Below are positions 2,024 through 64,000 of a DNA stretch of 64,000 bases, in pieces; position 1 is the stretch's first letter; every line of letters begins with the position of its first letter. Source of the stretch: Acidimicrobiia bacterium (GTDB taxonomy: Bacteria; Actinomycetota; Acidimicrobiia; Spongiisociales; ZC4RG35). A program made the translations under genes and the position numbers. The DNA lies in contig DATCZS010000112.1 of NCBI GenBank assembly GCA_036525795.1, forward strand, positions 8,635 to 72,634, given 5' to 3'. The notes under the pieces were generated by a model. That model worked only from the letters and a program-made list of their open reading frames with translations, made no database searches and had not been told where the DNA came from.

Positions 2024-2409
2024 GTGTGCTCCCTGTGGCGGTCGACCCGACGAAGTCCGGTCGATGTGCGCAGTGTAGGGCGGCGCCCCCGCCCGGCATC
2101 AGGCGGATCACCCTCTGTGACTAGTCCTCATGGCATCGCGCGGAACCACCCACAGGGCGATGCGTGGCTGCCGATAACGGTCGGGAACGCCAGGGGGAGC
2201 ACACCATGACCACGCCTTTCACGATCGGATCCGTGTCTGTTCGAGAGTTTCTCGCGTCGATGACGGCTGCGTCCCGAGAAGAGGGCGATGCCCCGGACGA
2301 GGAACCGGCCGTTCGACCGGCCGCCTGAACTCGCTTCCCGACCGGCCGCCACCCGGACCGGTCGAAGGGGCCTATCCCCCTGCCGAGTGATGTCCTCTTC
2401 GTCCCCGAG

Positions 2410-2482
2410 TGGAGCTGACGGGATTTGAACCCGTGACCCCCTGCTTGCAAAGCAGGTGCTCTGCCAACTGAGCTACAGCCCC
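2410..2482 (-). tRNA. tRNA-Ala (anticodon TGC)
   Basis: reverse complement reads GGGGCTGTAGCTCAGTTGGCAGAGCACCTGCTTTGCAAGCAGGGGGTCACGGGTTCAAATCCCGTCAGCTCCA; anticodon loop CTTTGCAAG; CCA not encoded. Confidence 0.9.
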
Positions 2483-2631
2483 AGAGAAGGCGCCGCTCTC
2501 CTCGGGGTTGCCGCCATCGCCAGGCGAGGGACGGCTCCGTCGGAAATCGACCACCAGAGGATATCCGATGACGGAGGTGGGGCCACAACCCCGGCCTTCC
2601 GCTACCCACACCACCGACGTATCGTCTGCGC

Positions 2632-4743
2632 ATGACGGACAGCCGCGTGATCGTCGCAGACGACGACGGACGGGAACCGGCCCCACCCCTCTCTCCCCCG
2701 CCTCCCGACTCAAGGGCGGGACTCGGTGCCCTGGTGGCGGCAGCGGTGGTGATCGTGGGACTGGTGCTCGTCGGAACCGCACCGGACCCCGAACCCGACC
2801 AGACCGGTGGGCTCGGGGCACCCACCGCGGCCGAGCAGCCCGTGGTGACCGCACCTCCCGCGGTGGTGCCCGAGATCGCCCTGGGCTGGAGGCGCCTCGA
2901 CCTGCCGGGGAGAGGCACCGTCGTCGAACTCGCCCACGGTGGAGGCGGTTGGATGGCTCTCTCCCACGGCGAGCAGTCGACCGTGGCGACGTCGACGGAC
3001 GGGCGGATCTGGGTGACCCGCTCCTTCCCCGGACCTCTCGACGGAGACGTGCTCGGCATGGTGACGTCCACCCGCCACGTGGTGGTCGACACCGGCGCAG
3101 GGACCGGCGGCGCCACCCGCTCGTGGGTCTCCACAGACGGCGGCGTGACCTGGGACACGGCCCTGTTCCCACCCGGCTACGTGCGGATCACATCGCTGGT
3201 CTCTGCCGGAGACCGCATCGTGGCCGGCGGGGCGGTGTCCACCGATCCCCGGGACGTCGTCGAGGAGGGATCCGCCACCACGGCGATGGCGTGGCACTAC
3301 ACCGACGGCCGGTGGGTTCCCCTTGCGTTCTCCAGCCCGCCGGGCGCCTTCAGCAGCGTCGAGGCCCTGGTGACGACATCGGACGGGGTCATGGCCTTCG
3401 GGCGGGTCGACGAGGGTCCGGCCGCCTGGCGGCTGGAGGGGCTGACGCTGGCCCGGGTGTCCGTCTCGGTCCCTCGCGCCGTCGAGGAAAGCTCCTTTTC
3501 CGCCGTGACCCGGTCGATGGACGGGTGGTGGCTGGCAGAGTTCCGGTCCAGGTCGAGCGCGTCCTATGCCACGTCCAGCGACCTCACCCAATGGGATCTG
3601 CTCGGGGCGGGACTCGACGGTTCACGGAGCACCTCGGTCGCCGCGACCGGCCTCGGCATCGTCGGTGTGGGCGAAGACGATCAGCAGTTCCGTCTGGTCG
3701 ACGGCTCGGGGATCCAGGAGGTCCGGTACCGCTATCCGGACACCTTCACGGGCTTCGATCCGGACCGGCACACATCGGTGGTGGCCTCCGATGGAGACCT
3801 GATCGTGATGGGAGGCGGAACCTACTCGCCGGCCCTGTGGCTGCGTGGTCTCACCGGCGGACGGGTCGGGGTCACGGCCGAGCCTTCCACCCGAGAGGGA
3901 CGGTGGCGGCTGGCAGGGTCGTTCGGATCGGGCTTCTGGGATCCGGATCCCCGCCCGTTCCGGGTCGTGCGGTGGGAAGGTGGGTATGCGGTCGCCACCC
4001 CGCAGGCCGTGTGGCACACCACCGACCTCATCGGGGTCGCCGCGACTCGCGAAGACATCGTGCCCGAGCGCCTGATCGCGACGCGTCAAGGACTGCTTGC
4101 AGTCGATTCCGGGGCAGCGCTCCTCGGCTCGGACGGCTCGGGAGGGTGGGAACCGGAGAACCTGGGCTTTGCGGTCGGCGGCGTCACCGAGACCCCCTCA
4201 TCGGTGATCGCCTACGGGTGGACCGACCGGGGCGAGGCCGTACTCGCCGTTCGCCCTGACGGCGGATCCTGGGAGATCGTGACACCCGACTCCTCGTCCA
4301 CGATCTACCCCGTCGCCGCCGCCGCCGGTCTCGTCTTCGGATTCGACGCCGAGCGTTCGGCTGAAGACGGAGGCAGGTTCAGCTCCGACGGGGTGACCTG
4401 GGAGCCGATCGAACTCGACGCACTCCGCGGACTCGAGAGCGGTACCCCGTTCGTGATCGTGGAGCGCTCCCGGGCCTCGACCACCATCCAGCTCCTCGAC
4501 GAACAGGCGCCGTTGGTGGTTCCTTCCATCGATCCGGTCGAGGTCGTGAGAGTGGGCGAGATCGTGCGGGTACGGGGGTCGGACGGGCTGTGGGAGACCT
4601 CCGATGCAGGAACCACCTGGATCACCTACCCCATCGGCCTCGAGCAGCGGCTCATCGGGCCTCTGCGCCTTGCGCCGACCGAGGAACCGATCGTCCTCCT
4701 GGCGGCGCGTGACTCCTACCGCATCCTTGTCTTCGAACGGTGA
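2632..4743 (+). CDS. membrane-anchored BNR/Asp-box repeat (beta-propeller) protein, unknown function
   Basis: 703 aa; N-terminal TM helix (LGALVAAAVVIVGLVLVG); repeated S-x-D-x-G-x-T-W motifs (STDGGVTWD, SSDGVTWEP, TSDAGTTWI). Confidence 0.65.
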   Translation: MTDSRVIVADDDGREPAPPLSPPPPDSRAGLGALVAAAVVIVGLVLVGTAPDPEPDQTGGLGAPTAAEQPVVTAPPAVVPEIALGWRRLDLPGRGTVVELAHGGGGWMALSHGEQSTVATSTDGRIWVTRSFPGPLDGDVLGMVTSTRHVVVDTGAGTGGATRSWVSTDGGVTWDTALFPPGYVRITSLVSAGDRIVAGGAVSTDPRDVVEEGSATTAMAWHYTDGRWVPLAFSSPPGAFSSVEALVTTSDGVMAFGRVDEGPAAWRLEGLTLARVSVSVPRAVEESSFSAVTRSMDGWWLAEFRSRSSASYATSSDLTQWDLLGAGLDGSRSTSVAATGLGIVGVGEDDQQFRLVDGSGIQEVRYRYPDTFTGFDPDRHTSVVASDGDLIVMGGGTYSPALWLRGLTGGRVGVTAEPSTREGRWRLAGSFGSGFWDPDPRPFRVVRWEGGYAVATPQAVWHTTDLIGVAATREDIVPERLIATRQGLLAVDSGAALLGSDGSGGWEPENLGFAVGGVTETPSSVIAYGWTDRGEAVLAVRPDGGSWEIVTPDSSSTIYPVAAAAGLVFGFDAERSAEDGGRFSSDGVTWEPIELDALRGLESGTPFVIVERSRASTTIQLLDEQAPLVVPSIDPVEVVRVGEIVRVRGSDGLWETSDAGTTWITYPIGLEQRLIGPLRLAPTEEPIVLLAARDSYRILVFER

Positions 4744-4767: not shown

Positions 4768-5535
4768 TCAGCCGGCGCGGCCGATGCCGCCGCGTACGAC
4801 GACGTCTCCCTCGATGATCTGCGCCCTCAGGTCGTCGGCCTCACGACCGGGCATCAGCCCGAGTTCGGCCATGACCGCCCCGTAGTCGTCGAGCGCCTTG
4901 AGCGCATCGACCCTTCTCCCCTGCTCGAGCAGCGAGCGGGCGAGCAACTTCCACAGATGCTCACGGTACGGGTCGTCTGCGAGCGCCGACCGCAGCCTGC
5001 CGACGGCACGGATCTGATCGCCGAGTGCGACATCGCACTCCAACTCCAACTCGACCGCAGTCCGCCGCAACTCCTCCAGCCGGAGCGCCTCCACACGAAA
5101 CGGATCCTCGTCTGCCATCTCCCCATACGGTGTTCCCCGCCACAGCGAGAGCGCGTCCAGCAGCAGTCTGCGGGCGGCCTCCGGGTCGGTGTGGACGGCC
5201 TCCGCCGCCTGAAGCACAGCCCTCTCGAAAGCGCATGCGTCGATGTCCTCGCAGGTCGCCACCAGCGTGTAGCTGTGGTCGGTGGCTCGCAACCAGTCCT
5301 CCCCGAGAAGGGCGCGCAGGCGCGAGATGTGAGATTGGAGCGCGTTCATCCCGGTGGCGGGAACCCCTTCCGGCCACACCACATCGAGGAGCCGGTCGAT
5401 CGACACCGCGTGGTTCACCGAGAGCACGAGAACGGCGAGCAGCGCCTGAGTTCGTCGACCGGCAACCGGCACGACAGCCTCCCCGTCGTCGATGGCGGGC
5501 GGTCCCAACATCAGGATTCGAGTGCGCGGCGGCAT
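4768..5535 (-). CDS. SARP-family (AfsR/DnrI/RedD-like) transcriptional regulator: OmpR-type winged helix plus BTAD domain
   Basis: ILMLGPPAIDDGEAVVPVAGRRTQALLAVLVL...IDRLLDVVWPEG... then TPR-like BTAD region; start placed at MPPRTRILMLGPP (ORF extends to 5562). Confidence 0.8.
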   Translation of the reverse strand: MPPRTRILMLGPPAIDDGEAVVPVAGRRTQALLAVLVLSVNHAVSIDRLLDVVWPEGVPATGMNALQSHISRLRALLGEDWLRATDHSYTLVATCEDIDACAFERAVLQAAEAVHTDPEAARRLLLDALSLWRGTPYGEMADEDPFRVEALRLEELRRTAVELELECDVALGDQIRAVGRLRSALADDPYREHLWKLLARSLLEQGRRVDALKALDDYGAVMAELGLMPGREADDLRAQIIEGDVVVRGGIGRAG

Positions 5536-5734
5536 CACAAACACCGACTGACCACACCTCACGGTACGCCCAGGGGCAATCCCGATCCAGAGTCCAACGT
5601 CAGCGTCCGCGCCGGGTCAGCAGCACATCCCGTCCGGGTATGCGCCCCATCCGATCCGCCACCGGCCGACTGGCGTTCCGGGCGCGACCGTGAGGGAGAA
5701 GGAACACAGTCCGAGAGACCCAAGGAGGTGGATC

Positions 5735-6268
5735 GTGACACTGGACACCGGCCTGAGAGCCGGCGAGTCGGCCGGCACCGAAGCCGGGGTACGCGAACGG
5801 GAGGTGCTTCCCAGAGTGCGGCAGCCGGTCGTGCGCTGGATCGAGTTCCTGGCGTTCATGGGGTTGGTGGTCGTGGCGGCCGTAGGCCTCTGGCTCATCG
5901 TGGGCAACGACGCAACCGACGGCAGCTTCGAGGCCGCCGAAGAGATGCGTTTCGAACGAATCGGCCAGGCCGCGGCGGTGATCACCGCCCAGCAGTTGGC
6001 CCGGCTGGAAGACGCGGTCACGCCCTCCGTCGGAGCCCCCTTCGAGATGGCCGAAATGGCCCGCTTCGAGCGGATCGCCGAGGCGGCCGGCGCCCCGACG
6101 CTCTTGAGCGACGGCTCCTCTTCCTATGCCGAGTCGCTGCGGCTCAACCTGCTTCGGCCCACAGGCGGAATTCATCTCGACGGGTTCGACGTCGCCGAGA
6201 TGCTGCGCTTCTCCCGCATCGGCGGCTATGCGCAGGCGATCACCCTCGACGAGTTCGTGGAGCCGTGA
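5735..6268 (+). CDS. hypothetical single-TM protein with RFERIG/RFSRIGGYA repeats (paralog A)
   Basis: GTG at 5735 preceded by AAGGAGGT with 6-nt spacer; TM helix FLAFMGLVVVAAVGLWLIV; repeats EEMRFERIGQAAAV / EMARFERIAEAAG / EMLRFSRIGGYAQAITLDEF; about 45% identical to the next gene. Confidence 0.6.
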   Translation: MTLDTGLRAGESAGTEAGVREREVLPRVRQPVVRWIEFLAFMGLVVVAAVGLWLIVGNDATDGSFEAAEEMRFERIGQAAAVITAQQLARLEDAVTPSVGAPFEMAEMARFERIAEAAGAPTLLSDGSSSYAESLRLNLLRPTGGIHLDGFDVAEMLRFSRIGGYAQAITLDEFVEP

Positions 6269-6286
6269 GAGAAACCGAGGTGAGAC

Positions 6287-6859
6287 ATGACATCGACGAT
6301 TGACCGGGGGAAGACAAGGGAAGGCCTCGACTGGGGGAGGGCGCCTCCGAGAACCCATCCTCAGGCCGTCAGGCGGATCGAGCTCCTGGTGTTCATGGGA
6401 CTCGTTGCCGTGGCGGCGGTCGCCCTGTGGCTGATGGCGGGTGATGACACGACCGACGGCAGCTTCGAGATCGCCGAGCAGATGCGGTTCGAACGGATCG
6501 GCCAGCAGGCGGCGGTGGTGGACGTCGAGGACTTCGCCTCATTGGAGGACGGGGTGGCCGCCACGATGGACCACAGCTTCGACCGCGCCGAGCTGGAGCG
6601 TTTCTCCCGTATCGGCGGCTACGCGCCGGCGATCACGCTGAACGAGTTCGCCGCACTGGAGGATCACGCCTTTGTCGCCCCGACGCATGGCGAACTCCAA
6701 GGACTCGCCGACATCTACACCGGCGACTCCTTCGGCTCCATGCCGATGGACTACTGGCAGAACCTGGCGCTCCAGGAGTTGGCCGACATCTACACCGGCG
6801 ACTCCTTCGGCTCCATGCCGATGGACTACTGGCAGGCCCACACGTCGCCGGTTGAGTGA
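6287..6859 (+). CDS. hypothetical single-TM protein with RFERIG/RFSRIGGYA repeats (paralog B) carrying an internal exact duplication
   Basis: ATG 6287 after GAGGTGA; collinear with paralog A; C-terminal exact duplicate LADIYTGDSFGSMPMDYWQ x2. Confidence 0.65.
   Translation: MTSTIDRGKTREGLDWGRAPPRTHPQAVRRIELLVFMGLVAVAAVALWLMAGDDTTDGSFEIAEQMRFERIGQQAAVVDVEDFASLEDGVAATMDHSFDRAELERFSRIGGYAPAITLNEFAALEDHAFVAPTHGELQGLADIYTGDSFGSMPMDYWQNLALQELADIYTGDSFGSMPMDYWQAHTSPVE
6707..6835 (+). repeat. two identical 54-nt direct repeats (6707-6760 and 6782-6835) separated by 21 nt, inside paralog B
   Basis: read directly: gccgacatctacaccggcgactccttcggctccatgccgatggactactggcag occurs twice. Confidence 0.9.
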
Positions 6860-7029: not shown

Positions 7030-7105
7030 CGGGCCCATAGCTCAGTTCGGTTAGAGCGCTGCCCTGATAAGGCAGAGGTCCCTGGTTCAAATCCAGGTGG
7101 GCCCA
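7030..7105 (+). tRNA. tRNA-Ile (anticodon GAT)
   Basis: GGGCCCATAGCTCAGTTCGGTTAGAGCGCTGCCCTGATAAGGCAGAGGTCCCTGGTTCAAATCCAGGTGGGCCCA; 7-bp acceptor stem; lone tRNA as at the Mycobacterium ori region. Confidence 0.9.
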
Positions 7106-7166
7106 CCCCCGACAGTCTCTGCTGGTTCAGGGACTTCCCGCTTCCTGGCTTGGGGCCCGCCCCCCA

Positions 7167-8273: not shown

Positions 8274-9059
8274 ATGCCGTCCAGGAGTCCGAAGATGCCG
8301 TCCGCGCGCACATTGTTGGCTCTCGCCTTGGTCCTGGCCTCGTGCGCCTCCCCCGATCCGGTCCAGCCGTCTCCGACCTCGGCGGACATTCCCGACCAGG
8401 ACGGGGCGGGGACCGACGCACATGACGAGCAGTCCGGGGGCCACACCCCCGATGACATGCAATCCCTCGAGTGGGACGGCGGGGCTCTTCCCGAACTCTC
8501 CATCTCCGTGACCGGTGACAGCGCCCAGGGTTGGACCGTGGCGACGTCGATCACCAACTTCACCCTCACCGGCTCGGATGCGTCCGATCACGTACGCGGG
8601 CAGGGTCACGCCCACATCTGGGTCGACGGGCGGGTGTTCACGATGATCACGGAGCCGACCGTCGTGATCCCGATCCTCGACCCGGGCACCCACGAGATCA
8701 TGGTCACGCTCAGTTCGAACGATCACCTGGACTACGTTCACGACGGGGAGCCATTGATGGCCCGGACCATCGTCGAGGTGGCCGGTATCGAGGACGACCA
8801 CCCGATCTTCACTATCGAGATCGCAGGCGGGACTGTGACCGTCGACGACGACAGGCCCCGGGTGAACATCGGCGACGAGGTGGAGCTGCGTATCACGTCC
8901 GACGTGACCGACGAGGTACACGTCCACGGCTATGACGTCACCGGTGCGCTCCAGCCGGGTGTCGAGGCCATCATGCGCTTCACAGCTGACGTGCCCGGCA
9001 TCTTCGAGATCGAACTCGAGTCTTCCGGGCTTCACCTGTTCGACCTCCAGGTCGGCTGA
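8274..9059 (+). CDS. lipoprotein with C-terminal cupredoxin-like domain; hypothetical
   Basis: signal peptide plus lipobox LVLASCAS; beta-rich C-terminal region (ELRITSDVTDEVHVHGYDV...IFEIELESSG); family uncertain. Confidence 0.5.
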   Translation: MPSRSPKMPSARTLLALALVLASCASPDPVQPSPTSADIPDQDGAGTDAHDEQSGGHTPDDMQSLEWDGGALPELSISVTGDSAQGWTVATSITNFTLTGSDASDHVRGQGHAHIWVDGRVFTMITEPTVVIPILDPGTHEIMVTLSSNDHLDYVHDGEPLMARTIVEVAGIEDDHPIFTIEIAGGTVTVDDDRPRVNIGDEVELRITSDVTDEVHVHGYDVTGALQPGVEAIMRFTADVPGIFEIELESSGLHLFDLQVG

Positions 9060-9158
9060 CCTCTCGGCCAGGTCACCTCTCTCTTCCGGGTCGGAACGCT
9101 CTGGGAACCCCCGCCGGAATGCGGTACGTCAAAGGTGTGAGCCCAAGGAGGTTGAGAC

Positions 9159-9887
9159 ATGCGCCGTATCGCAACCGTGACGATTGTCCTCGGGTTGGTC
9201 GTGGCGGCGTGTGGCGACAGCGCCGGCACGGTCCTCCAGCCCGCGGCGAACGAAGGAGCGGTCATGCCCAATACCATCTCCGTTTCCGGGACCGGTGAGG
9301 TCGCGGGCACTCCGGACACGCTCATCGTCGACCTGGGCGTGGCGGTGCTCCGCCCGAATGTCGGAAGGGCGACTTCGGACGCCGCCACCCTGCTCGAGGC
9401 GGTGATCAGTGCGGTGAAAGCCACCGGGGTGGCAGAACGCGACATCCAGACCACCAACTACGCGATCTGGCCCGAGTACGACTACCGCAACGACGCTCAG
9501 ACGCTGCGCGGGTACCGGGTCACGAACACCATCTCGATCAAGATCCGTGACCTCGACGGCGCCGGAGCGACCATCGACGCCGCAACCGCCGCCGGCGGCG
9601 ACGACGCCGTCGTCAACGGCATCCGTTTCGACATCGAAGAAAACGGGGCCCTCATCACCGCCGCCCGGGAAGCGGCCTGGAACGATGCCCTGTCAAAGGC
9701 CGAACAACTGGCGGGCCTGGCAGGGGTCGGACTGGGACAGGCGTTGTCGATCACCGAGTCGACGTCTTCGACTCCGCCGCCGGTGTTCAGAGCCGAGGCG
9801 CTCGACGCGGGCGCGGCCACCCCGATCCAGCCAGGCGAGCAGGTGGTGTCGGTGACGGTGCAAGTGAGCTTCACCATCGAGGGCTGA
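9159..9887 (+). CDS. SIMPL-domain (DUF541) secreted/lipoprotein, 26 kDa periplasmic immunogenic-protein family
   Basis: lipobox VVAACGD; SIMPL signature ISVSGTGEVAGTPDTLIVDLGV... Confidence 0.8.
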   Translation: MRRIATVTIVLGLVVAACGDSAGTVLQPAANEGAVMPNTISVSGTGEVAGTPDTLIVDLGVAVLRPNVGRATSDAATLLEAVISAVKATGVAERDIQTTNYAIWPEYDYRNDAQTLRGYRVTNTISIKIRDLDGAGATIDAATAAGGDDAVVNGIRFDIEENGALITAAREAAWNDALSKAEQLAGLAGVGLGQALSITESTSSTPPPVFRAEALDAGAATPIQPGEQVVSVTVQVSFTIEG

Positions 9888-9904
9888 GCGGGACGCTCCC
9901 CCGA

Positions 9905-10540
9905 GTGGCTAGCGTCGTTTCGGTGTTCACCGTGGTCGTCGCCGCCGCCGAAGAGTTGGGGGGTCGAGCCGCCTCGGCGCTCCTCGGCCATCCCGCCGTC
10001 GAGACGGTCGGAGTCGTCGACCGGGACCCACCCAAGTCGTGGGGCAACCGTGCACGTCGCGTGGCGGGCCCCTCGGGTTTCGACGTGGGAATCGGCGTCG
10101 ACGGCGCCGGCGTGAGGGTCTTTCGCCGGGCCCCGCTTGGCGGCGGCATCGGGTGGGCGTCGCCGGCCGGGTTGGCCATGGCGGCAAGGTCCCGGGTCGA
10201 GGGTCCTGCCACCTGTGCGGTCACCGTCCCGGGAAGGCCACTGTCCGACGGCGAGGCGTTCGCATTCCCTCCCCCGATCGGGTGGTCGCGGGGTGTGGTG
10301 GGCCCGGAGGACGTCTACGAGTGCCCTGTGGAGGGACCACATGCCGGGGCATTGGCGCGGGGCCGATCCGGGGAAACGGTCGCGACGTCCGACGATGCGC
10401 TCTTCCTCAACGCGATCTGCCTGGCGGCCGGTGCGGTCGTGGCGGCCGAGCGGCCAGGCATCGCATCGGTGTGGGAAGCCGCAGAGGACTACCTGGCGGC
10501 GTGCGAGGCCCTGGGGGTCGTTCTGGCTGCGTCCGGCTGA
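9905..10540 (+). CDS. hypothetical protein (GTG start)
   Basis: third-codon positions strongly G/C in this frame, unlike the overlapping antisense ORF 9497..10342; no recognised domain. Confidence 0.35.
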   Translation: MASVVSVFTVVVAAAEELGGRAASALLGHPAVETVGVVDRDPPKSWGNRARRVAGPSGFDVGIGVDGAGVRVFRRAPLGGGIGWASPAGLAMAARSRVEGPATCAVTVPGRPLSDGEAFAFPPPIGWSRGVVGPEDVYECPVEGPHAGALARGRSGETVATSDDALFLNAICLAAGAVVAAERPGIASVWEAAEDYLAACEALGVVLAASG

Positions 10541-10553
10541 AGGCGGGGCCGTC

Positions 10554-11027
10554 TCACGAACTGGGAATGGCCGGGTGTTCCTCGGTCGGAACGTCGAGCC
10601 TGCCGCCCGACGCAGGTGCGGGCGCCGGGGCCACGAAGCGGGGCGAGGGCGCCGGCTGATCGAGCACCTCTTCGAGCACCACGACCTCGATCCCTCCGAC
10701 CACGTCGGAGATCAGGTTGTACATCACGGCAAGCAGCGTGGTCATGCCGCATCCGAGAACCGCCCACGCGATCGACCCGAACACCGCCAGCCGAAGGAAC
10801 GACTCGGTGTTGGCAAACGGCTCCGAACCCTCCTCGAGCAGCGTGATCGACACCAGGAAGTCGGTGATCCGCTGAGGGATGTCGGCGGCGTCCACCACCG
10901 ACCAGAACATCACCAACCCCAGCACCAGACCGAGCGCCAGGATGAACCACAAGATGGCCGACACCTTGAACACCGTCCAGGCGTCGATCTTTCGGATGAT
11001 GCGCCGCACGCGCCGTACCTGGGCCAT
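10554..11027 (-). CDS. DUF3566 transmembrane protein (Rv0007-like), conserved downstream of gyrA
   Basis: MAQVRRVRRIIRKIDAWTVFKVSAILWFILALGLVLGLVMFW...; position next to gyrA as in Mycobacterium. Confidence 0.7.
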   Translation of the reverse strand: MAQVRRVRRIIRKIDAWTVFKVSAILWFILALGLVLGLVMFWSVVDAADIPQRITDFLVSITLLEEGSEPFANTESFLRLAVFGSIAWAVLGCGMTTLLAVMYNLISDVVGGIEVVVLEEVLDQPAPSPRFVAPAPAPASGGRLDVPTEEHPAIPSS

Positions 11028-11108
11028 GGCGCCCTCCGTCTCGTGTGGTGATTCAGTGTATGGGAACCCGAAGCGAAGGTCGAACGTTCACCGGACCCCC
11101 GGCGCAGG

Positions 11109-13574
<2,466 letters not shown>

Positions 13575-13607
13575 ATCGCTGCTCGCATGCTCTCGACGAT
13601 GGCCCGC

Positions 13608-15542
<1,935 letters not shown>

Positions 15543-15635
15543 TCAGGGCTGGGTGAGGGGAATTCACGTGTTGTAATTCTAGTCCTCTCGGGTGGCTGTC
15601 CCAAGCTCGTCGAGGGACCGCTCGCCCCACCTCCA

Positions 15636-15947
15636 TCACGCTTCTCGCGGTCTCCGAGCCGGGGGTCTGACCCTGATCTCGGTGACGACTCCGGGGCCCA
15701 GTTCCGCCTCCAGTCGATGCAGCAGGCTGGTGATTCCATATCGCAGGATCGCCACCGCTTGAGGGGCCACCGCCTCCACCACCAGCACACCCCGGTTGAG
15801 CGACACGGGTGTCGACTGCCGATCCCACGGGGAGCCGGCGAAGCGTTCCCACCCTTGCTCGATTCGTTGCCACACCGCCGGATCCGCCACCCCGAGGTTC
15901 GACATCAGCCTCCGGAGCAGGTCTCCGAGCCGGGCCGGGTCGTTCAT
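15636..15947 (-). CDS. dciA: DUF721 protein (Rv0004/DciA-like, putative replicative helicase operator)
   Basis: conserved position between recF and gyrB; MNDPARLGDLLRRLMSNLGV...; start placed at the ATG right after the recF stop (ORF extends to 15980). Confidence 0.55.
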   Translation of the reverse strand: MNDPARLGDLLRRLMSNLGVADPAVWQRIEQGWERFAGSPWDRQSTPVSLNRGVLVVEAVAPQAVAILRYGITSLLHRLEAELGPGVVTEIRVRPPARRPREA

Positions 15948-17041
15948 GCCGCCACCACCTTCCCGGCCTCCACCGACCACACCGATCCTTGCAGCGGCAC
16001 GTCACCCGGGTGAGCGGTCGTCACGATGGTCTGCGCGCGCGGCAGGGCATTGGTGAGGGCGGTTCCCCGTCCCGGATCGAGCTCGCTGTACACATCGTCG
16101 AGCAGCAGAACAGGGGCCGCTCCGGTGGATTCGGTGATGGCCCGGTGCGCCGCCAGGCGCAGAGCCAGCGCCACCGTGCGCTGTTCTCCCTGGCTGGCGT
16201 GATGCCGGGCGTCGTGACCGCCGAGAACCAGCACCGGTTCGTCGCGATGTGGACCGGCCGTCGTCACTCGGCGATCACGATCCTCGCGGCGGCGTTCCTC
16301 GAGTGTTCGCCGCAGCCGGTCGGTGAGTTCGGAGACCGGAACGGACGGATCGAGCGCTCCTCCCCAGGCCGAGTGGTACTCGACTCCGACGCCGACCTCC
16401 GACTCGGACACCCGTCTGTGCGCCTCCTCGAGGTGGGCGAGAATGGCAGCCAGAGCCCGCGCCCGCCTCCCCATCACGCGTCCCCCGGCCATCGCCATTC
16501 GCTCATCCCACACCGACAACGTGACCTCGTCGCCTGATCCCTGTTTGAGGAAGGCATTGCGCTGGCGAACCGCCCGCTCGAACTCGCTCTGCTCGACGTG
16601 CGCCGCCGGCCACAATTGCACCGCCACGTCGTCGATGAACTCTCGTCTCAACGCCGGGCCGCGCTTGACGATGTCGAGGTCTTCGGGGAGGAATGCGACG
16701 ATCCTCACGTGTCCCAGGAGATCCGACGATCTGACAAGGCGCTGACGATTGACCATCGACCGCCTCCCCCCGCGTCGTCGGATCTCGATCTCGATCAGCG
16801 AGGTGGCGTCTGCGGACACCACCGAGGATCTCACGAAGGCCGACTCGTGCCCGAATGCCACCAGGGCTTCGTCCGGGGCCCCTCGAAACGATTTGAGCGC
16901 TGCAACATACGACACTGCCTCCAGCAGGTTCGTCTTGCCCGCACCGTTTCTCCCGACGAGCACGTTCACGTCCTCGCTGGGGTGCCACTCCAGCTCGCCG
17001 TACGAGCGGAAGCCGGCCAGCGACAGCCACTCGATGTGCAC
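15944..17041 (-). CDS. recF: DNA replication and repair protein RecF
   Basis: MHIEWLSLAGFRSYGELEW...VLVGRNGAGKTNLLEAV (Walker A); 365 aa. Confidence 0.95.
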   Translation of the reverse strand: MHIEWLSLAGFRSYGELEWHPSEDVNVLVGRNGAGKTNLLEAVSYVAALKSFRGAPDEALVAFGHESAFVRSSVVSADATSLIEIEIRRRGGRRSMVNRQRLVRSSDLLGHVRIVAFLPEDLDIVKRGPALRREFIDDVAVQLWPAAHVEQSEFERAVRQRNAFLKQGSGDEVTLSVWDERMAMAGGRVMGRRARALAAILAHLEEAHRRVSESEVGVGVEYHSAWGGALDPSVPVSELTDRLRRTLEERRREDRDRRVTTAGPHRDEPVLVLGGHDARHHASQGEQRTVALALRLAAHRAITESTGAAPVLLLDDVYSELDPGRGTALTNALPRAQTIVTTAHPGDVPLQGSVWSVEAGKVVAA

Positions 17042-59633: not shown

Positions 59634-60548
59634 ATGCCCGCCTCCGTCGATCGGCTCGATCCGTCACGTCGCTCTCGATCGGGTGCGTGGCTGGCGGCGG
59701 CCTCGGCGGTGGCATTCGCCTCGCTGGCGGTGTTCGGGCGGGAGGCATCCGCGGCGGGAATGCGGGCCGAGACGCTCCTGCAGTGGCGCTTCGGCGTGGC
59801 GGCGGCGGTCCTGGCCGCGGCCGGGATGCTCCGGCACCCCATTCCCGCCCGTCTGCGTCTCCTGTTGCTCGGCTCCGGCCTCATCTACACGGCCCAGACG
59901 TCGTTCTACTTCGCTGCGCTCGGGAGAATCACCGCCGGGACCACCGCCCTGCTCCTGTATCTCGCCCCGGTGTTCGTGGTGGTCTACGCCCGCCTCCTGG
60001 GGCGGCGGCCGTCCCGGCTCCAGATGCTGGCCGTGGCGATCGGACTGTCCGGTCTGGCCGTGATCGCCGGTCTGCCTTCCCGCGCCGATGCCGATCCGCT
60101 CGGACTGACGGCGGGAGCCGCCGCCGGGGCGACATTCGCCGGATACATCCTGGCCGGCGAGTTCGTCTTCGCCCGCGTCCCACCATTGGTGACGGCGGCG
60201 CACACCATGGTTGGAGCGGCGGTTGGGTTTCTGGCGGTGGACGTGGCGCGGGGAGGCGTCGTTGTCCTGCCGGCAGGAGCGGAGCAGTGGTGGATCGTGA
60301 CGGGCACGGTGATCTTCCCGACCCTGGTCGCCATCCCCATGCTGTTTGCCGCGGTGAGCCGGATCGGGGCCGGACCGACCGCCATCATCTCGAACGCCGA
60401 ACCGGTGGCCACCATCATCCTGGCGGCGATCTTCCTCTCCGAACCCGCTCGTCCTGTCCAGGTGCTCGGCGGGGCGTTGATCCTCACCGCCGCCTCCCTC
60501 GCCCAGCGGTCTGCGATGACGGCGCGGCCGGGACGGTCCAGGGTCTGA
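59634..60548 (+). CDS. EamA/DMT-family transporter
   Basis: 10-TM pattern with duplicated EamA halves. Confidence 0.75.
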   Translation: MPASVDRLDPSRRSRSGAWLAAASAVAFASLAVFGREASAAGMRAETLLQWRFGVAAAVLAAAGMLRHPIPARLRLLLLGSGLIYTAQTSFYFAALGRITAGTTALLLYLAPVFVVVYARLLGRRPSRLQMLAVAIGLSGLAVIAGLPSRADADPLGLTAGAAAGATFAGYILAGEFVFARVPPLVTAAHTMVGAAVGFLAVDVARGGVVVLPAGAEQWWIVTGTVIFPTLVAIPMLFAAVSRIGAGPTAIISNAEPVATIILAAIFLSEPARPVQVLGGALILTAASLAQRSAMTARPGRSRV

Positions 60549-60561
60549 GGACGGCAGGGCT

Positions 60562-62083
60562 TCAGTCCACTCCGACTCCGTCCAGATGGCCGGTGGCGAT
60601 GAGCCGGGACACCGCCTCGATGTCGACCCCGATCGGCCGATCGTCTTCCAGGGAGGGGACGACCGAGCGGATGGCAGCGTGGATCTGGCGGGTGCCGACT
60701 CCGGGTCGAAGCGGGGCGCGCTGGTCGACGCCCTGGGCGGCACACAGCAACTCGACCGCCAGCACCCGCCGCACGTTCTCGATGACCATCCACAGCTTGC
60801 GGGCGGCGCCGAATCCCATCGAGACGTGGTCTTCCTGGAGCCCGGAGGTGGGGATCGAATCGATCGAGGCCGGATGGGCCAGAACTCGCGTCTCTGCCAC
60901 CAGTGCCGCCGCCGTGTATTGGGCGAGCATGAACCCCGAGTGGAGCCCGGGTTCCTTGGCGAGGAAGGGGCTCAACCCCGACGACCGGGTGGGATCGAGC
61001 ATGCGATCGGTCCGCCGCTCGGAGATCGAGGCCAGCTCCTCCAGGGCGATGGCGAGGAAGTCGAGGGCGAAGGCGAGAGGCTGGCCGTGGAAGTTGCCTG
61101 CGGAGATCACCTCGTCGGTGTCGGCGAAGACGATCGGGTTGTCGACCACCGAGCCGAGCTCCCGCCCGAACACCTGGGCGGCGTGGGCGAGGGTGTCCCG
61201 GACCGCCCCGTGCACCTGGGGGGCGCAGCGGAGCGAGTAGGCGTCCTGGACGGCGTGGGTGAAGTCGTCGTGGTGGCTGGCCTCGATCTGGGATCCGTGC
61301 AGCAGCGACCGGATCCGCCGGGCCGATTCGGACTGGCCGGGGTGGGGGCGGAGCCGGTGGACTCGGGGGTCGTAGGGGCGGACCGATCCGAGCACCGCCT
61401 CTACCGTCAGCGCACAGGCCTGGTCGGCGACGTTCGCCAGGCGTTCCCCCTCCGCCAGGGCGAGGACTCCCATCGCCAGCATCCCCTCGGTCCCGTTGAG
61501 CAGGCTCAGCCCCTCCTTGGCCTGGAGATGCAGCGGCGCGATGCCGGTGCGGGCGAGCGCCTCTCCGGCCGGGAGCACCTCGCCCCGCATTCGAACCAGA
61601 CCCTCGCCGATGAGCGGCAGCGCCAGATGGGCGAACGGGGCGAGATCCCCGCTGGCCCCCACCGACCCCTGACCCGGGACCGTGGGGAGGATGTCGTTGC
61701 GAAGCATCGCCAGGATGGTCTCGACCACCACGGGACGGACTCCCGAGTGCCCCTGGGCCAGTGTGCGGGCACGGAGGAGCAGCATCGCCCGAACGACGCG
61801 ATCGGGGAGCAGGTCACCCACTCCGGCCGCGTGGGATCGGAGGAGTTCGTACTGGAGTTGATCCACCTGCGCCCCCGAGATGTGGGTGGTGGCGAGCGCC
61901 CCGAACCCGGTGGTGATGCCGTACACCACTCGCCCCTCGGCGATGGCGTGCTCCACAGTCGCCCGGGACGCCTGCATCCGGGCGATCGCCTCCGGCGCCA
62001 GCGCCACCTGCGCCCCCCGATCCGCGACGGCGACCACGTCCTCCCGGCTGAGCGGCCCGCCGTCGATGGTGACTTCGATCATG
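60562..62083 (-). CDS. hutH: histidine ammonia-lyase
   Basis: start MIEVTIDGGPLS (ORF continues upstream as a non-coding-looking extension); MIO-forming GSVGASGDLAPF. Confidence 0.9.
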
Positions 62084-62651
62084 TCGTCTCCTCGACAACT
62101 CGTCTGATGTGTTCTGTGAAACGGTCCTTCTGGTGGAGGTCGAACTGGCGCCATGTGGCCAGCGTCCGGGTGTCCTCGACGCGATCGACGAACAGGCCTC
62201 CATCGAGGTGGTCGAGCTCGTGTTGCGCCGTGCCGGCGGTGAGGCCGCGGAACCGGTGCTCGACGGAGACGCCGTCGCGGTCCCACGCCCGCACATGAAC
62301 CTCGATCGAACGGTGGAGGTCGCCGCGCAGGTCGGGCACAGAGAGACAGCCCTCGTTGTTCCAGTACGTCTCCTCGCTCCTCCACGCCATCACGGGGTTC
62401 ACCAGGATCGTGAGCGGATGCGCCGGCTTGTACGGGTAGCGGGGGTTGTCGGCGATCTCGATGGCGCAGATCCTGCGACCGTCCCCCACCTGATTGGCGG
62501 CGATTCCCGCTCCGCCCGCGTGTCGCATGGTCTCGACGAGGTCGTCGATGAACCGCTGGCAGGAGTCGCTCGCCAACTCGTGTCGCTCGACCGGCCTCGT
62601 GGGCCGGCGCAGCGCCGGGTCGCCGATCTCGCGTATCGGGATGACGCTCAT
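62079..62651 (-). CDS. def: peptide deformylase homolog embedded in the hut cluster
   Basis: all three Def motifs (GAGIAANQVG; EGCLSVP; QHELDHLDG); 4-nt overlaps with hutI upstream and hutH downstream. Confidence 0.8.
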   Translation of the reverse strand: MSVIPIREIGDPALRRPTRPVERHELASDSCQRFIDDLVETMRHAGGAGIAANQVGDGRRICAIEIADNPRYPYKPAHPLTILVNPVMAWRSEETYWNNEGCLSVPDLRGDLHRSIEVHVRAWDRDGVSVEHRFRGLTAGTAQHELDHLDGGLFVDRVEDTRTLATWRQFDLHQKDRFTEHIRRVVEETT

Positions 62652-63853
62652 GGCGAGCTCCATTCGTGCACGGTTCCTCCAACGACGGTGGCATGACAGA
62701 GCGGAGCCGCCAGCCAGTAGACGAGATCGATGCCGGATTCGACGTCCCACACCGCCAGGTCGGCGTCGTATCCGACGGCGATCCTGCCCCGCCGGTCGGA
62801 GGCGCCGAGTGCGGCGGCGGCGTGGGTCGTCATGCCGGCGAGTGCCTCCTCTGGGGTGAGTCCGAAGCGGTGCACGGCGAGGGCGGCAGCCAGCGGGAGC
62901 GAGGCGAGGGGAGACGACCCGGGGTTGAGATCGGTCGACACCGCCATCCTGACTCCTGCCGCCCGGAACGCCCCCACCGGCGGCCGGTGGTCGTCACCCA
63001 GGAAGAGCGAGGCCCCCGGCACCAGGACCGCGACCGTCCCCGCCTCCGCCAGTGCCCGGGCATCGGAGGCCGGGACGTGTTCGCAGTGGTCGATGCTCAA
63101 CGCTCCGATCGCCGCCGCCATCCGGGCTCCCCCCATGTCGGAGAACTGTCCTACGTGTGCCTTGGTGGCCAGACCGTGGGCGCGAGCCGCCTCCAGGCAC
63201 CGGCGCCCCTCGTCTGCGGTGAAGGCGATGTCCTCGATGAACACGTCCACTGCGTCGGCCAGACCTTCGGCGGCGGCCCGGGGGATCATCTCGTTGCACA
63301 CCAGATCGAGGTAGAGGCCGCGGTCCGAGTCGGAGGGCACGACGTGCAGGGGGAGGAGCGTGGTGGAGAGGCGCATGCCCACCTCGCCGGCCGCGGCCCG
63401 CGCCGCCGCCAGCATTCGAAGCTCGTGGTCGGTGTCGAGGCCGTATCCCGACTTGACCTCGACGGTCGTGGCCCCGTTGGCCGCCAGCCACCGCATCCGG
63501 CGGGCGGCCGAGGCCTTCAACTCGTCGAACCGGGCGGCCCGGGTGGCCGCCACCGTCGATCTGATGCCGCCCCCGGCGGCTGCCAGTTCCTGGTAGGTCG
63601 ATCCGGACAGCCTCCTCTGGAAGTCGAGTACCCGATCTCCCCCGAAGACGAGGTGGGTGTGGGGATCGATCAGTCCGGCGGTGACGAGTCTCCCCTCCGC
63701 GTCCAGTTGGCGCCGGGCTTCGGAGACATCCGGCCCCACCGACACGATCTTCCCGCCGTCCACGCCCAGCGAGCCCTGGAGGGGACGCGTCCGGGGGTCC
63801 ACCAGGATCCTTGCATTGGTCAGGGCGAGGTCGATCACGGTCTGCCGCTCCAC
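62648..63853 (-). CDS. hutI: imidazolonepropionase
   Basis: GTG start; amidohydrolase metal ligands (DPHTHLVFGG), HutI-like length of 401 aa. Confidence 0.9.
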   Translation of the reverse strand: MERQTVIDLALTNARILVDPRTRPLQGSLGVDGGKIVSVGPDVSEARRQLDAEGRLVTAGLIDPHTHLVFGGDRVLDFQRRLSGSTYQELAAAGGGIRSTVAATRAARFDELKASAARRMRWLAANGATTVEVKSGYGLDTDHELRMLAAARAAAGEVGMRLSTTLLPLHVVPSDSDRGLYLDLVCNEMIPRAAAEGLADAVDVFIEDIAFTADEGRRCLEAARAHGLATKAHVGQFSDMGGARMAAAIGALSIDHCEHVPASDARALAEAGTVAVLVPGASLFLGDDHRPPVGAFRAAGVRMAVSTDLNPGSSPLASLPLAAALAVHRFGLTPEEALAGMTTHAAAALGASDRRGRIAVGYDADLAVWDVESGIDLVYWLAAPLCHATVVGGTVHEWSSP

Positions 63854-64000
63854 AGCACGGAGATGGCCGCCTCCAGGGCCGCCGCCGCGTCTGGCGTCTC
63901 GACGTGCTCTCCGTGGGCCACGATGCGGCGGCCACCGGCCACGACGTCGGTGACGTCCGCCGCCGACGCCGTCATCGCCAACCCGGCGACGCCGTCGGTT
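63850..64000 (-). CDS. C-terminal fragment of an upstream gene (possibly amidohydrolase-family, e.g. formimino-glutamate deiminase); partial at window edge
   Basis: in-frame ...VAGGRRIVAHGEHVETPDAAAALEAAISVLWSGRP* with stop overlapping the hutI start; identity is tentative. Confidence 0.35.

Follow-up and report, generated by a model that had tools for sequence, protein, structure and literature searches.

The 64-kb window analysed here is a stretch of 64,000 nucleotides from contig DATCZS010000112.1 of an Acidimicrobiia bacterium, and close to its end it carries, on the minus strand, part of a hut (histidine utilization) operon in which a gene of the peptide deformylase (PDF) family lies between hutI and hutH. 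The five-step degradation of histidine is a textbook pathway, but in many Actinomycetota no enzyme has been assigned to its final step. We propose that the product of this gene, referred to as the Def-like protein, is a likely candidate for this enzyme. The genes and gene junctions at the locus are the following.

60562 to 62082, minus strand: hutH, histidine ammonia-lyase, 506 aa, last gene of the operon (TIGR01225, 675 bits, cut-off 539)
62079 to 62082, minus strand: ATGA overlap of the def stop and the hutH start (from the sequence)
62079 to 62651, minus strand: Def-like gene, 190 aa, PDF fold, proposed N-formyl-L-glutamate deformylase (from the open reading frame, profiles, structural model and context)
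62648 to 62651, minus strand: ATGA overlap of the hutI stop and the def start (from the sequence)
62648 to 63838, minus strand: hutI, imidazolonepropionase, 396 aa from the GTG at 63838 (TIGR01224, 405 bits, cut-off 298)
63835 to 63838, minus strand: GTGA overlap of the hutF stop and the hutI start (from the sequence)
63835 to 64000, minus strand: 3' end of hutF, formimidoylglutamate deiminase, cut by the window end (tblastn and profiles)

The open reading frame of the Def-like gene runs from an ATG at 62651 to a TGA at 62079, and PF01327 (E 3.8e-42, 144 bits, cut-off 22.8) is the sole Pfam match of its product, which is thus no member of PF05013 (HutG/FGase). Scores of 114 bits with TIGR00079 and 143.4 bits with NF001159 also exceed the curated cut-offs (103.95 and 125 respectively), and from the reading frame, these three profiles and the motif residues the original prediction of a complete Def-family protein with the motifs GAGIAANQVG, EGCLSVP and QHELDHLDG could be confirmed. 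The 4-nt overlaps with both neighbours and the assignment of these neighbours as imidazolonepropionase and histidine ammonia-lyase genes had been recognized correctly as well, and the probable amidohydrolase-family gene reported upstream turned out to be the 3' end of hutF, whose final 54 codons were found at 63838-63999 by tblastn with the HutF protein of locus L001 (100% identity over residues 388-441). The most likely start of hutI is at 63838, as called on contigs with an identical Def-like protein, and not at 63853, the start of the longer open reading frame. At the other end of the operon, an EamA gene convergent with hutH ends at 60548. In tblastn searches of the window, the Def-like protein revealed no second def and an NF006770 protein revealed no M20 gene, and the rest of the window contains no additional hut genes. 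Promoter-like sites were not detected within the window part of the operon, and nothing relevant was seen around it in scans for tRNAs, Rfam families, promoters and terminators.

The part of the operon beyond the window end was read from metagenome contigs with an identical or 95%-identical Def-like protein. More than 20 contigs encoding the identical protein reach past this end and show the gene order hutU, a gene for a 441-aa amidohydrolase, hutI, def and hutH. The amidohydrolase is HutF according to NF006681 (540 bits, cut-off 362) and TIGR02022 (444 bits, cut-off 413), and the first gene encodes urocanase (TIGR01228, 664-670 bits); hutU, for which the original prediction had suggested a search, is accordingly present upstream. 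In the 95%-identical relative, represented by an 80-kb contig, a gene for a GntR/UTRA regulator is located directly upstream of hutU and overlaps its start. This region lies outside the window, and the best NCBIfam match of the regulator is HutC with 124 bits, under the cut-off of 220. The resulting order of six genes is GntR/UTRA (HutC-like) regulator, hutU, hutF, hutI, def and hutH, with ATGA or GTGA overlaps at all five junctions. With hutH, hutU, hutI and hutF all above their equivalog cut-offs and co-oriented in one overlap-coupled unit, the cluster is a HutF-type five-step operon. Neither a PF05013 nor an M20 gene was found in the operon by Pfam lists of the flanks and neighbour scans, and no formyltransferase domain appeared in the Pfam lists of the Def-locus flanks. 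The operon encodes the four known steps up to N-formyl-L-glutamate, and the Def-like gene is the sole unassigned enzyme gene there. In Pseudomonas-type hut operons, the reaction predicted here for the Def-like protein is the fifth step after HutF and is catalysed by HutG (FGase, PF05013, EC 3.5.1.68), which is also encoded in the hut cluster but is unrelated in family and fold to the PDF-fold Def-like protein.

Protein searches led to homologues of the Def-like protein from 95% down to about 50% identity, including two with 67% (P0017) and 61% identity (P0024) that are both encoded in hut clusters. In a family survey based on one genome per species, 80 loci were fetched and scanned with HutH, HutU, HutI and HutF, resulting in 16 non-redundant hut-linked loci from Acidimicrobiia, Ilumatobacteraceae, Acidimicrobiaceae, Solirubrobacteraceae, other Actinomycetota and one Arenicellales gammaproteobacterium. 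An independent metagenome survey based on HutF added 10-12 hut-linked Def loci, and two more were detected on long soil contigs from an abundant Solirubrobacteraceae clade, so that about 30 independent hutF-containing hut clusters from two phyla are now known with Def relatives of 50-67% identity. Among the survey loci, the gene orders U-F-I-def-H, U-F-I-def, H-U-def-F-I, H-U-F-I-def, def-F-I, U-def-F and F-H-def-U were observed (single letters for the hut genes), the last of these in the Arenicellales locus, and U-F-def-I-H was seen in the HutF-based metagenome survey. HutF is encoded in every hut-linked Def locus seen. Conservation in relatives, which the original prediction had proposed as a check, is therefore evident for the linkage of def and hutF, kept in at least five gene orders and in two phyla. 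No PF05013 protein was found in any Def-type locus examined, and the presence of an FGase or M20 gene hidden in the Def-type clusters was rejected, since the intervening or adjacent genes encode PhyH dioxygenases, IclR or HTH regulators and unrelated proteins.

Several of these loci show additional genes. A PhyH-family (phytanoyl-CoA dioxygenase-like) gene is located between hutU and def in L072 and L086 (6208-6990 in both) and L085 (2476-3200), and another one lies beside the Arenicellales cluster (L048, 2920-3747), with PF05721 E-values of 1e-24 to 1e-27 across these genes; we know of no role to report for a PhyH-type oxygenase in histidine degradation. In L162, a trimethylamine methyltransferase-like gene (5194-6735; TIGR02369, 310 bits, under the cut-off of 525) is found between hutU and def. 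The Arenicellales genes hutF-hutH-def-hutU (L048, 382-10186) are flanked by a second aromatic ammonia-lyase gene, an ornithine cyclodeaminase/mu-crystallin gene and a gene for a HalD-like 2-oxoglutarate oxygenase. As hutI was not detected in this 14.5-kb locus, the cluster may represent a modified pathway. For the family members outside hut clusters, neighbour clustering revealed no recurrent partner, the best cluster covering 11 of about 68 loci. Their myxobacterial representatives (Polyangia, Nannocystis, Sandaracinus and Sorangium; loci L011-L092, e.g. L011 8001-8576, L026 and L088) carry R-Y-P-Y-K-P and A-G-T together with Tyr or Phe at position 99. About 100 plasmids, mostly conjugative and from E. 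coli and Klebsiella, also carry an annotated accessory def (e.g. CP088772.1, 167874-168347); these genes are unrelated to the subfamily, with the best matches, from Enterobacteria, about 37% identical to the Def-like protein.

A second line of evidence came from 80 metagenome loci that were picked solely by HutF similarity (43-53% identity to HutF of this organism). In many of them, hutU is followed, after a gap of roughly 1.25 kb, by hutF and hutI, and the gene in the gap encodes an M20 hydrolase (NF006770, 570-632 bits) named 'allantoate amidohydrolase', an arrangement that we take to be that of Streptomyces. In other loci, the same slot between hutU and hutF is occupied by a Def-like gene of 0.57 kb. 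The M20 protein, with about 405 aa and as a member of a di-metal peptidase group, differs clearly from the Def-like protein, but both genes are strictly alternative in the hutU-X-hutF-hutI slot: of 102 HutF-bearing loci, 35 contain Def, 46 contain M20 and none contains both, even at E<1e-3. When the count was limited to loci in which hutF has 1.4 kb or more of flanking sequence on each side, 25 had M20, 8 had Def, 7 had neither and again none had both, corresponding to a one-sided Fisher p of 8.4e-5 that does not take phylogenetic non-independence into account. The flanks of the loci with neither gene hold unrelated genes, and their fifth enzyme is presumably encoded elsewhere. A neighbour-joining tree of HutF places Def-type operons in at least four positions, with the Solirubrobacteraceae operon L035 nested among M20-type operons, which suggests repeated replacement. 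Such an anticorrelation is predicted by a role shared with the M20 gene and not by a housekeeping def placed there by chance. An M20 amidohydrolase is the sole published candidate for the last enzyme in Actinomycetota, but the S. avermitilis protein did not show the N-formylglutamate deformylase activity proposed for it (Gerdes et al., PMC3223725, Table 3, case 20), and given this negative assay the fifth step of the HutF-type pathway is an open problem in Actinomycetota. L145 has a crude open reading frame call (2148-4097, 649 aa) in the interval from hutU to hutF, with a histidinol dehydrogenase domain (TIGR00069, 418 bits) and a C-terminus resembling imidazoleglycerol-phosphate dehydratase, i.e. 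domains of histidine biosynthesis within a cluster for histidine degradation. In L176, a long-read soil contig, hutF and hutI were called as one product of 812 aa (8576-11014), either a real fusion or a frameshift artefact, and the fragmented neighbouring hutH and hutU favour the artefact.

The features of the protein that bear on its reaction map to the window as follows.

62490 to 62513, minus strand: PDF motif 1, G47-A-G-I-A-A-N-Q54, with the oxyanion residue Gln54 and with Ala48 in place of Ile44 of E. coli (from alignments)
62424 to 62441, minus strand: R71-Y-P-Y-K-P76 insertion, invariant in the subfamily (from alignments and model)
62340 to 62357, minus strand: Asn99 and PDF motif 2, E100-G-C-L-S104, with the metal ligand Cys102 (from the sequence)
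62208 to 62237, minus strand: A139-G-T-A-Q-H-E-L-D-H148, comprising the A-G-T signature and motif 3 (Q143-H148), with the metal ligands His144 and His148 and the catalytic Glu145 (from alignments)

All residues required for PDF chemistry are kept: Gln54, Cys102, His144, Glu145, His148 and the Gly-x-Gly of motif 1 do not vary among 37 relatives or among all 26 hut-linked copies, and G47, A48, G49, A51, A52 and Q54 are the same throughout the subfamily. The AlphaFold2 model of the protein (pLDDT 95.3, pTM 0.91) gave only PDFs among the top 50 PDB matches in Foldseek, with PDF from Leptospira interrogans as the best (TM 0.87/0.96, rmsd 1.2 A, 38% identity), followed by plant and human type 1A PDFs and then by type 1B PDFs. 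The Leptospira enzyme (1SV2, 1Y6H, 1SZZ), which we take to be a genuine PDF encoded outside a hut operon, is also the best match in sequence (phmmer E 1.4e-32), with 115.9 bits compared to 96 for Arabidopsis 1A, 86 for E. coli and 67.7 for M. tuberculosis PDF. As the M. tuberculosis protein is less similar than the Leptospira and Arabidopsis 1A enzymes, the Def-like gene agrees better with a paralog or xenolog than with vertical inheritance of an actinobacterial housekeeping def. Leptospira PDF shares the three metal-binding and catalytic motifs, and between motif 1 and the next strand it has an equally long insertion with R-Y-P, but this loop reads R-Y-P-G-T-P instead of R-Y-P-Y-K-P; in the model, the aligned residues R71-P76 form a coil with the lowest confidence (pLDDT 84-87). 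The type 1A PDFs (AtPDF1A, 1ZXZ and 4JE6; human, 3G5K) are the second-best structural matches with TM 0.82-0.84 and 36-37% identity. They presumably have the insertion after motif 1 and a C-terminal D-[KR]-x(3,4)-R-T in common with the Def-like protein, but act on organellar formyl-Met peptides, keep the hydrophobic S1' pocket and have no hut context.

The main differences to known PDFs concern this pocket. In E. coli PDF, we take Ile44, Ile86, Leu125, Ile128 and Cys129 to be its hydrophobic, Met-binding walls. The residues aligned with them are Ala48, Asn98, Leu137, Gly140 and Thr141, i.e. four of the five putative Met-pocket positions are small or polar and a hydrophobic S1' pocket was not found, as judged by alignment with this assumed residue list. 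Similarly, Leptospira PDF has Val, Phe, Trp, Ile, Val and Tyr where the Def-like protein has Ala48, Asn98, Asn99, Gly140, Thr141 and Ala142. Position 99, directly before motif 2, best separates hut-linked from unlinked members of the family, with Asn99 in 25 of 26 hut-linked and 6 of 68 unlinked copies (Fisher p 4e-16) and with Tyr or Phe in 60 of the 68 unlinked ones. Position 111 is Asp, Asn or Glu in hut-linked copies, compared to mostly hydrophobic residues in the others.

Taken together, the Def-like gene is likely to encode a non-orthologous N-formylglutamate deformylase, in which a PDF fold would replace the known terminal enzyme of the hut pathway. We assign the protein to the fifth step because HutF makes N-formylglutamate and the operon has no known hydrolase for this compound, and from the genomic context, in which HutF is encoded, any other candidate is lacking from the operon and M20 is excluded, we infer an activity of EC 3.5.1.68. 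In the HutF-type pathway, histidine is converted to urocanate by HutH, then to imidazolonepropionate by HutU and to N-formimino-L-glutamate by HutI, and HutF releases ammonia from the latter, yielding N-formyl-L-glutamate. The Def-like enzyme would then hydrolyse the formamide bond of N-formyl-L-glutamate to formate and L-glutamate. The chemistry is expected to be that of PDF, with a metal bound to Cys102, His144 and His148, an activated water and Glu145 as acid/base, with the formyl oxygen on the metal and the oxyanion stabilised by Gln54 together with the main-chain amide of Leu103. An enlarged and more polar P1' pocket (Ala48, Asn98/Asn99, Gly140, Thr141) could take the glutamate side chain, and the free alpha-carboxylate may be held by Arg109, Asn99 or by Tyr74/Lys75 of the R71-Y-P-Y-K75 lid loop. 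The gene would be co-translated with hutU, hutF, hutI and hutH under a HutC-like repressor gene, and since the coupled operon is headed by this gene, the enzyme is probably made only with histidine or urocanate present. The analysis thus shows directly which genes are present, how the operon is built, that the linkage is conserved, that M20 is excluded, and that the catalytic site and fold are kept while other residues are replaced; substrate, individual residue roles (by alignment) and regulation are deduced. In genomes with the cluster, we expect a separate def and fmt. The literature searched contained no paper in which a peptide deformylase is connected with N-formylglutamate or with hut operons.

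Linkage to hut genes as such says only that the substrate belongs to the pathway, and the enzyme might instead be a deformylase or amidase for another hut-related compound, such as N-formylisoglutamine (formed when imidazolonepropionate is hydrolysed non-enzymatically or in a side reaction), N-formimino-L-glutamate itself or a formylated compound made by the PhyH-type dioxygenases found with some of the clusters. L072, L085 and L086 have a PhyH gene in the interval from hutU to def, another one lies near the cluster of L048, and the M20 protein of S. avermitilis from the same slot was without N-formylglutamate deformylase activity (PMC3223725). Yet most Def-type operons, including that of the window, have no PhyH gene, a hydrolase acting on formiminoglutamate would duplicate the role of HutF, and HutF, present in every linked locus, makes a product that needs a hydrolase. 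We therefore regard another hut-related substrate as unlikely. Less probable still is an ordinary peptide deformylase, housekeeping or spare, which came to lie in a hut operon by chance and acts on nascent formyl-Met peptides. Such an enzyme would agree with scores above the peptide deformylase equivalog cut-offs, with the canonical catalytic motifs and fold, with the R-Y-P insertion of the closest solved relative, the Leptospira protein assumed to be a real PDF, and with the lack of a second def in the 64-kb window, and in Actinomycetota def does not always adjoin fmt. Chance placement, though, would not outlast five gene orders and two phyla, nor would it explain the anticorrelation with M20, where none of the 102 loci contains the two genes together. 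The gene lies inside a catabolic operon and not in the constitutive setting, often by fmt, of a housekeeping def, and an essential gene under a HutC-like regulator and coupled to catabolic genes would be implausible. The replacement of the Met-pocket residues (again by the assumed list) by Ala, Asn, Gly and Thr and the low similarity to M. tuberculosis PDF also speak against it. A bifunctional enzyme, serving both as peptide deformylase of the cell and as N-formylglutamate deformylase, appears the least probable of all. The unchanged catalytic site would be compatible with residual PDF activity, but expression tied to histidine catabolism is ill-suited to a constitutive need, and with close relatives having the M20 enzyme instead, the gene behaves as a dispensable part of the pathway.

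Four points weigh against the assignment as N-formylglutamate deformylase. The protein passes the equivalog cut-offs for peptide deformylase and keeps all catalytic residues, and it may thus be active on formyl-Met peptides. The family signatures are not specific for hut clusters, as 68 members, nearly all from Myxococcota, are not hut-linked. In addition, the hut-linked copy from Arenicellales has Tyr99 and groups with myxobacterial-type sequences. Finally, the argument from exclusivity is weakened, since it proves equal function only if M20 does that step, and the sole published assay of an M20 homologue was negative. The operon content, the HutC-like regulator gene at its head, the linkage in relatives, the exclusivity with M20, the changes in the putative Met pocket and the lower similarity to M. 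tuberculosis than to Leptospira PDF all support the idea, already put forward in the original prediction, that a Def paralog in this position could be an N-formylglutamate deformylase.

Elsewhere in the window, recF (15944-17041), gyrB (13608-15533), gyrA (11109-13574) and a gene for a small membrane protein (10554-11027) are all located on the minus strand (10554-17041), in an order that we take to be typical for the origin region of Actinomycetota chromosomes. Given these genes, the hut operon lies about 45 kb from the likely oriC neighbourhood. A weak tblastn match of the Def-like protein at 10753-10851 was rejected, as its translation belongs to the membrane protein downstream of gyrA. Two isolated tRNA genes, tRNA-Ala(TGC) at 2409-2482 on the minus strand and tRNA-Ile(GAT) at 7031-7107 on the plus strand, lie about 4.5 kb apart, and no rRNA was detected in the window by Rfam.

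A broader but doubtful reading is that the whole subfamily of 186-196 aa with R-Y-P-Y-K-P and A-G-T-[AFY]-Q-H-E comprises small-molecule N-formyl-amino-acid deformylases and not peptide deformylases. This equally tentative extension would take in thousands of proteins from soil Solirubrobacteraceae and Acidimicrobiia and about 60 unlinked myxobacterial paralogs. If it were true, it would be the first non-ribosomal, metabolic function of the PDF fold, the equivalog models would systematically misname the members, and by exclusivity the M20 'allantoate amidohydrolase' would be isofunctional despite the negative published assay.

For the Def-like protein itself, a known pathway and a known fold are brought into a new pairing, which is widespread and testable by a simple assay. 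If the assignment is true, it would close a pathway gap in abundant soil and aquatic lineages such as Solirubrobacteraceae and Acidimicrobiia and would provide, to our knowledge and by the literature searched, the first member of the PDF family acting on a free metabolite. It would also expose a systematic mis-annotation, since these proteins pass 'peptide deformylase' equivalog cut-offs, and would represent a natural experiment in which a well-studied antibiotic-target enzyme has been retargeted by a few changes in its pocket.

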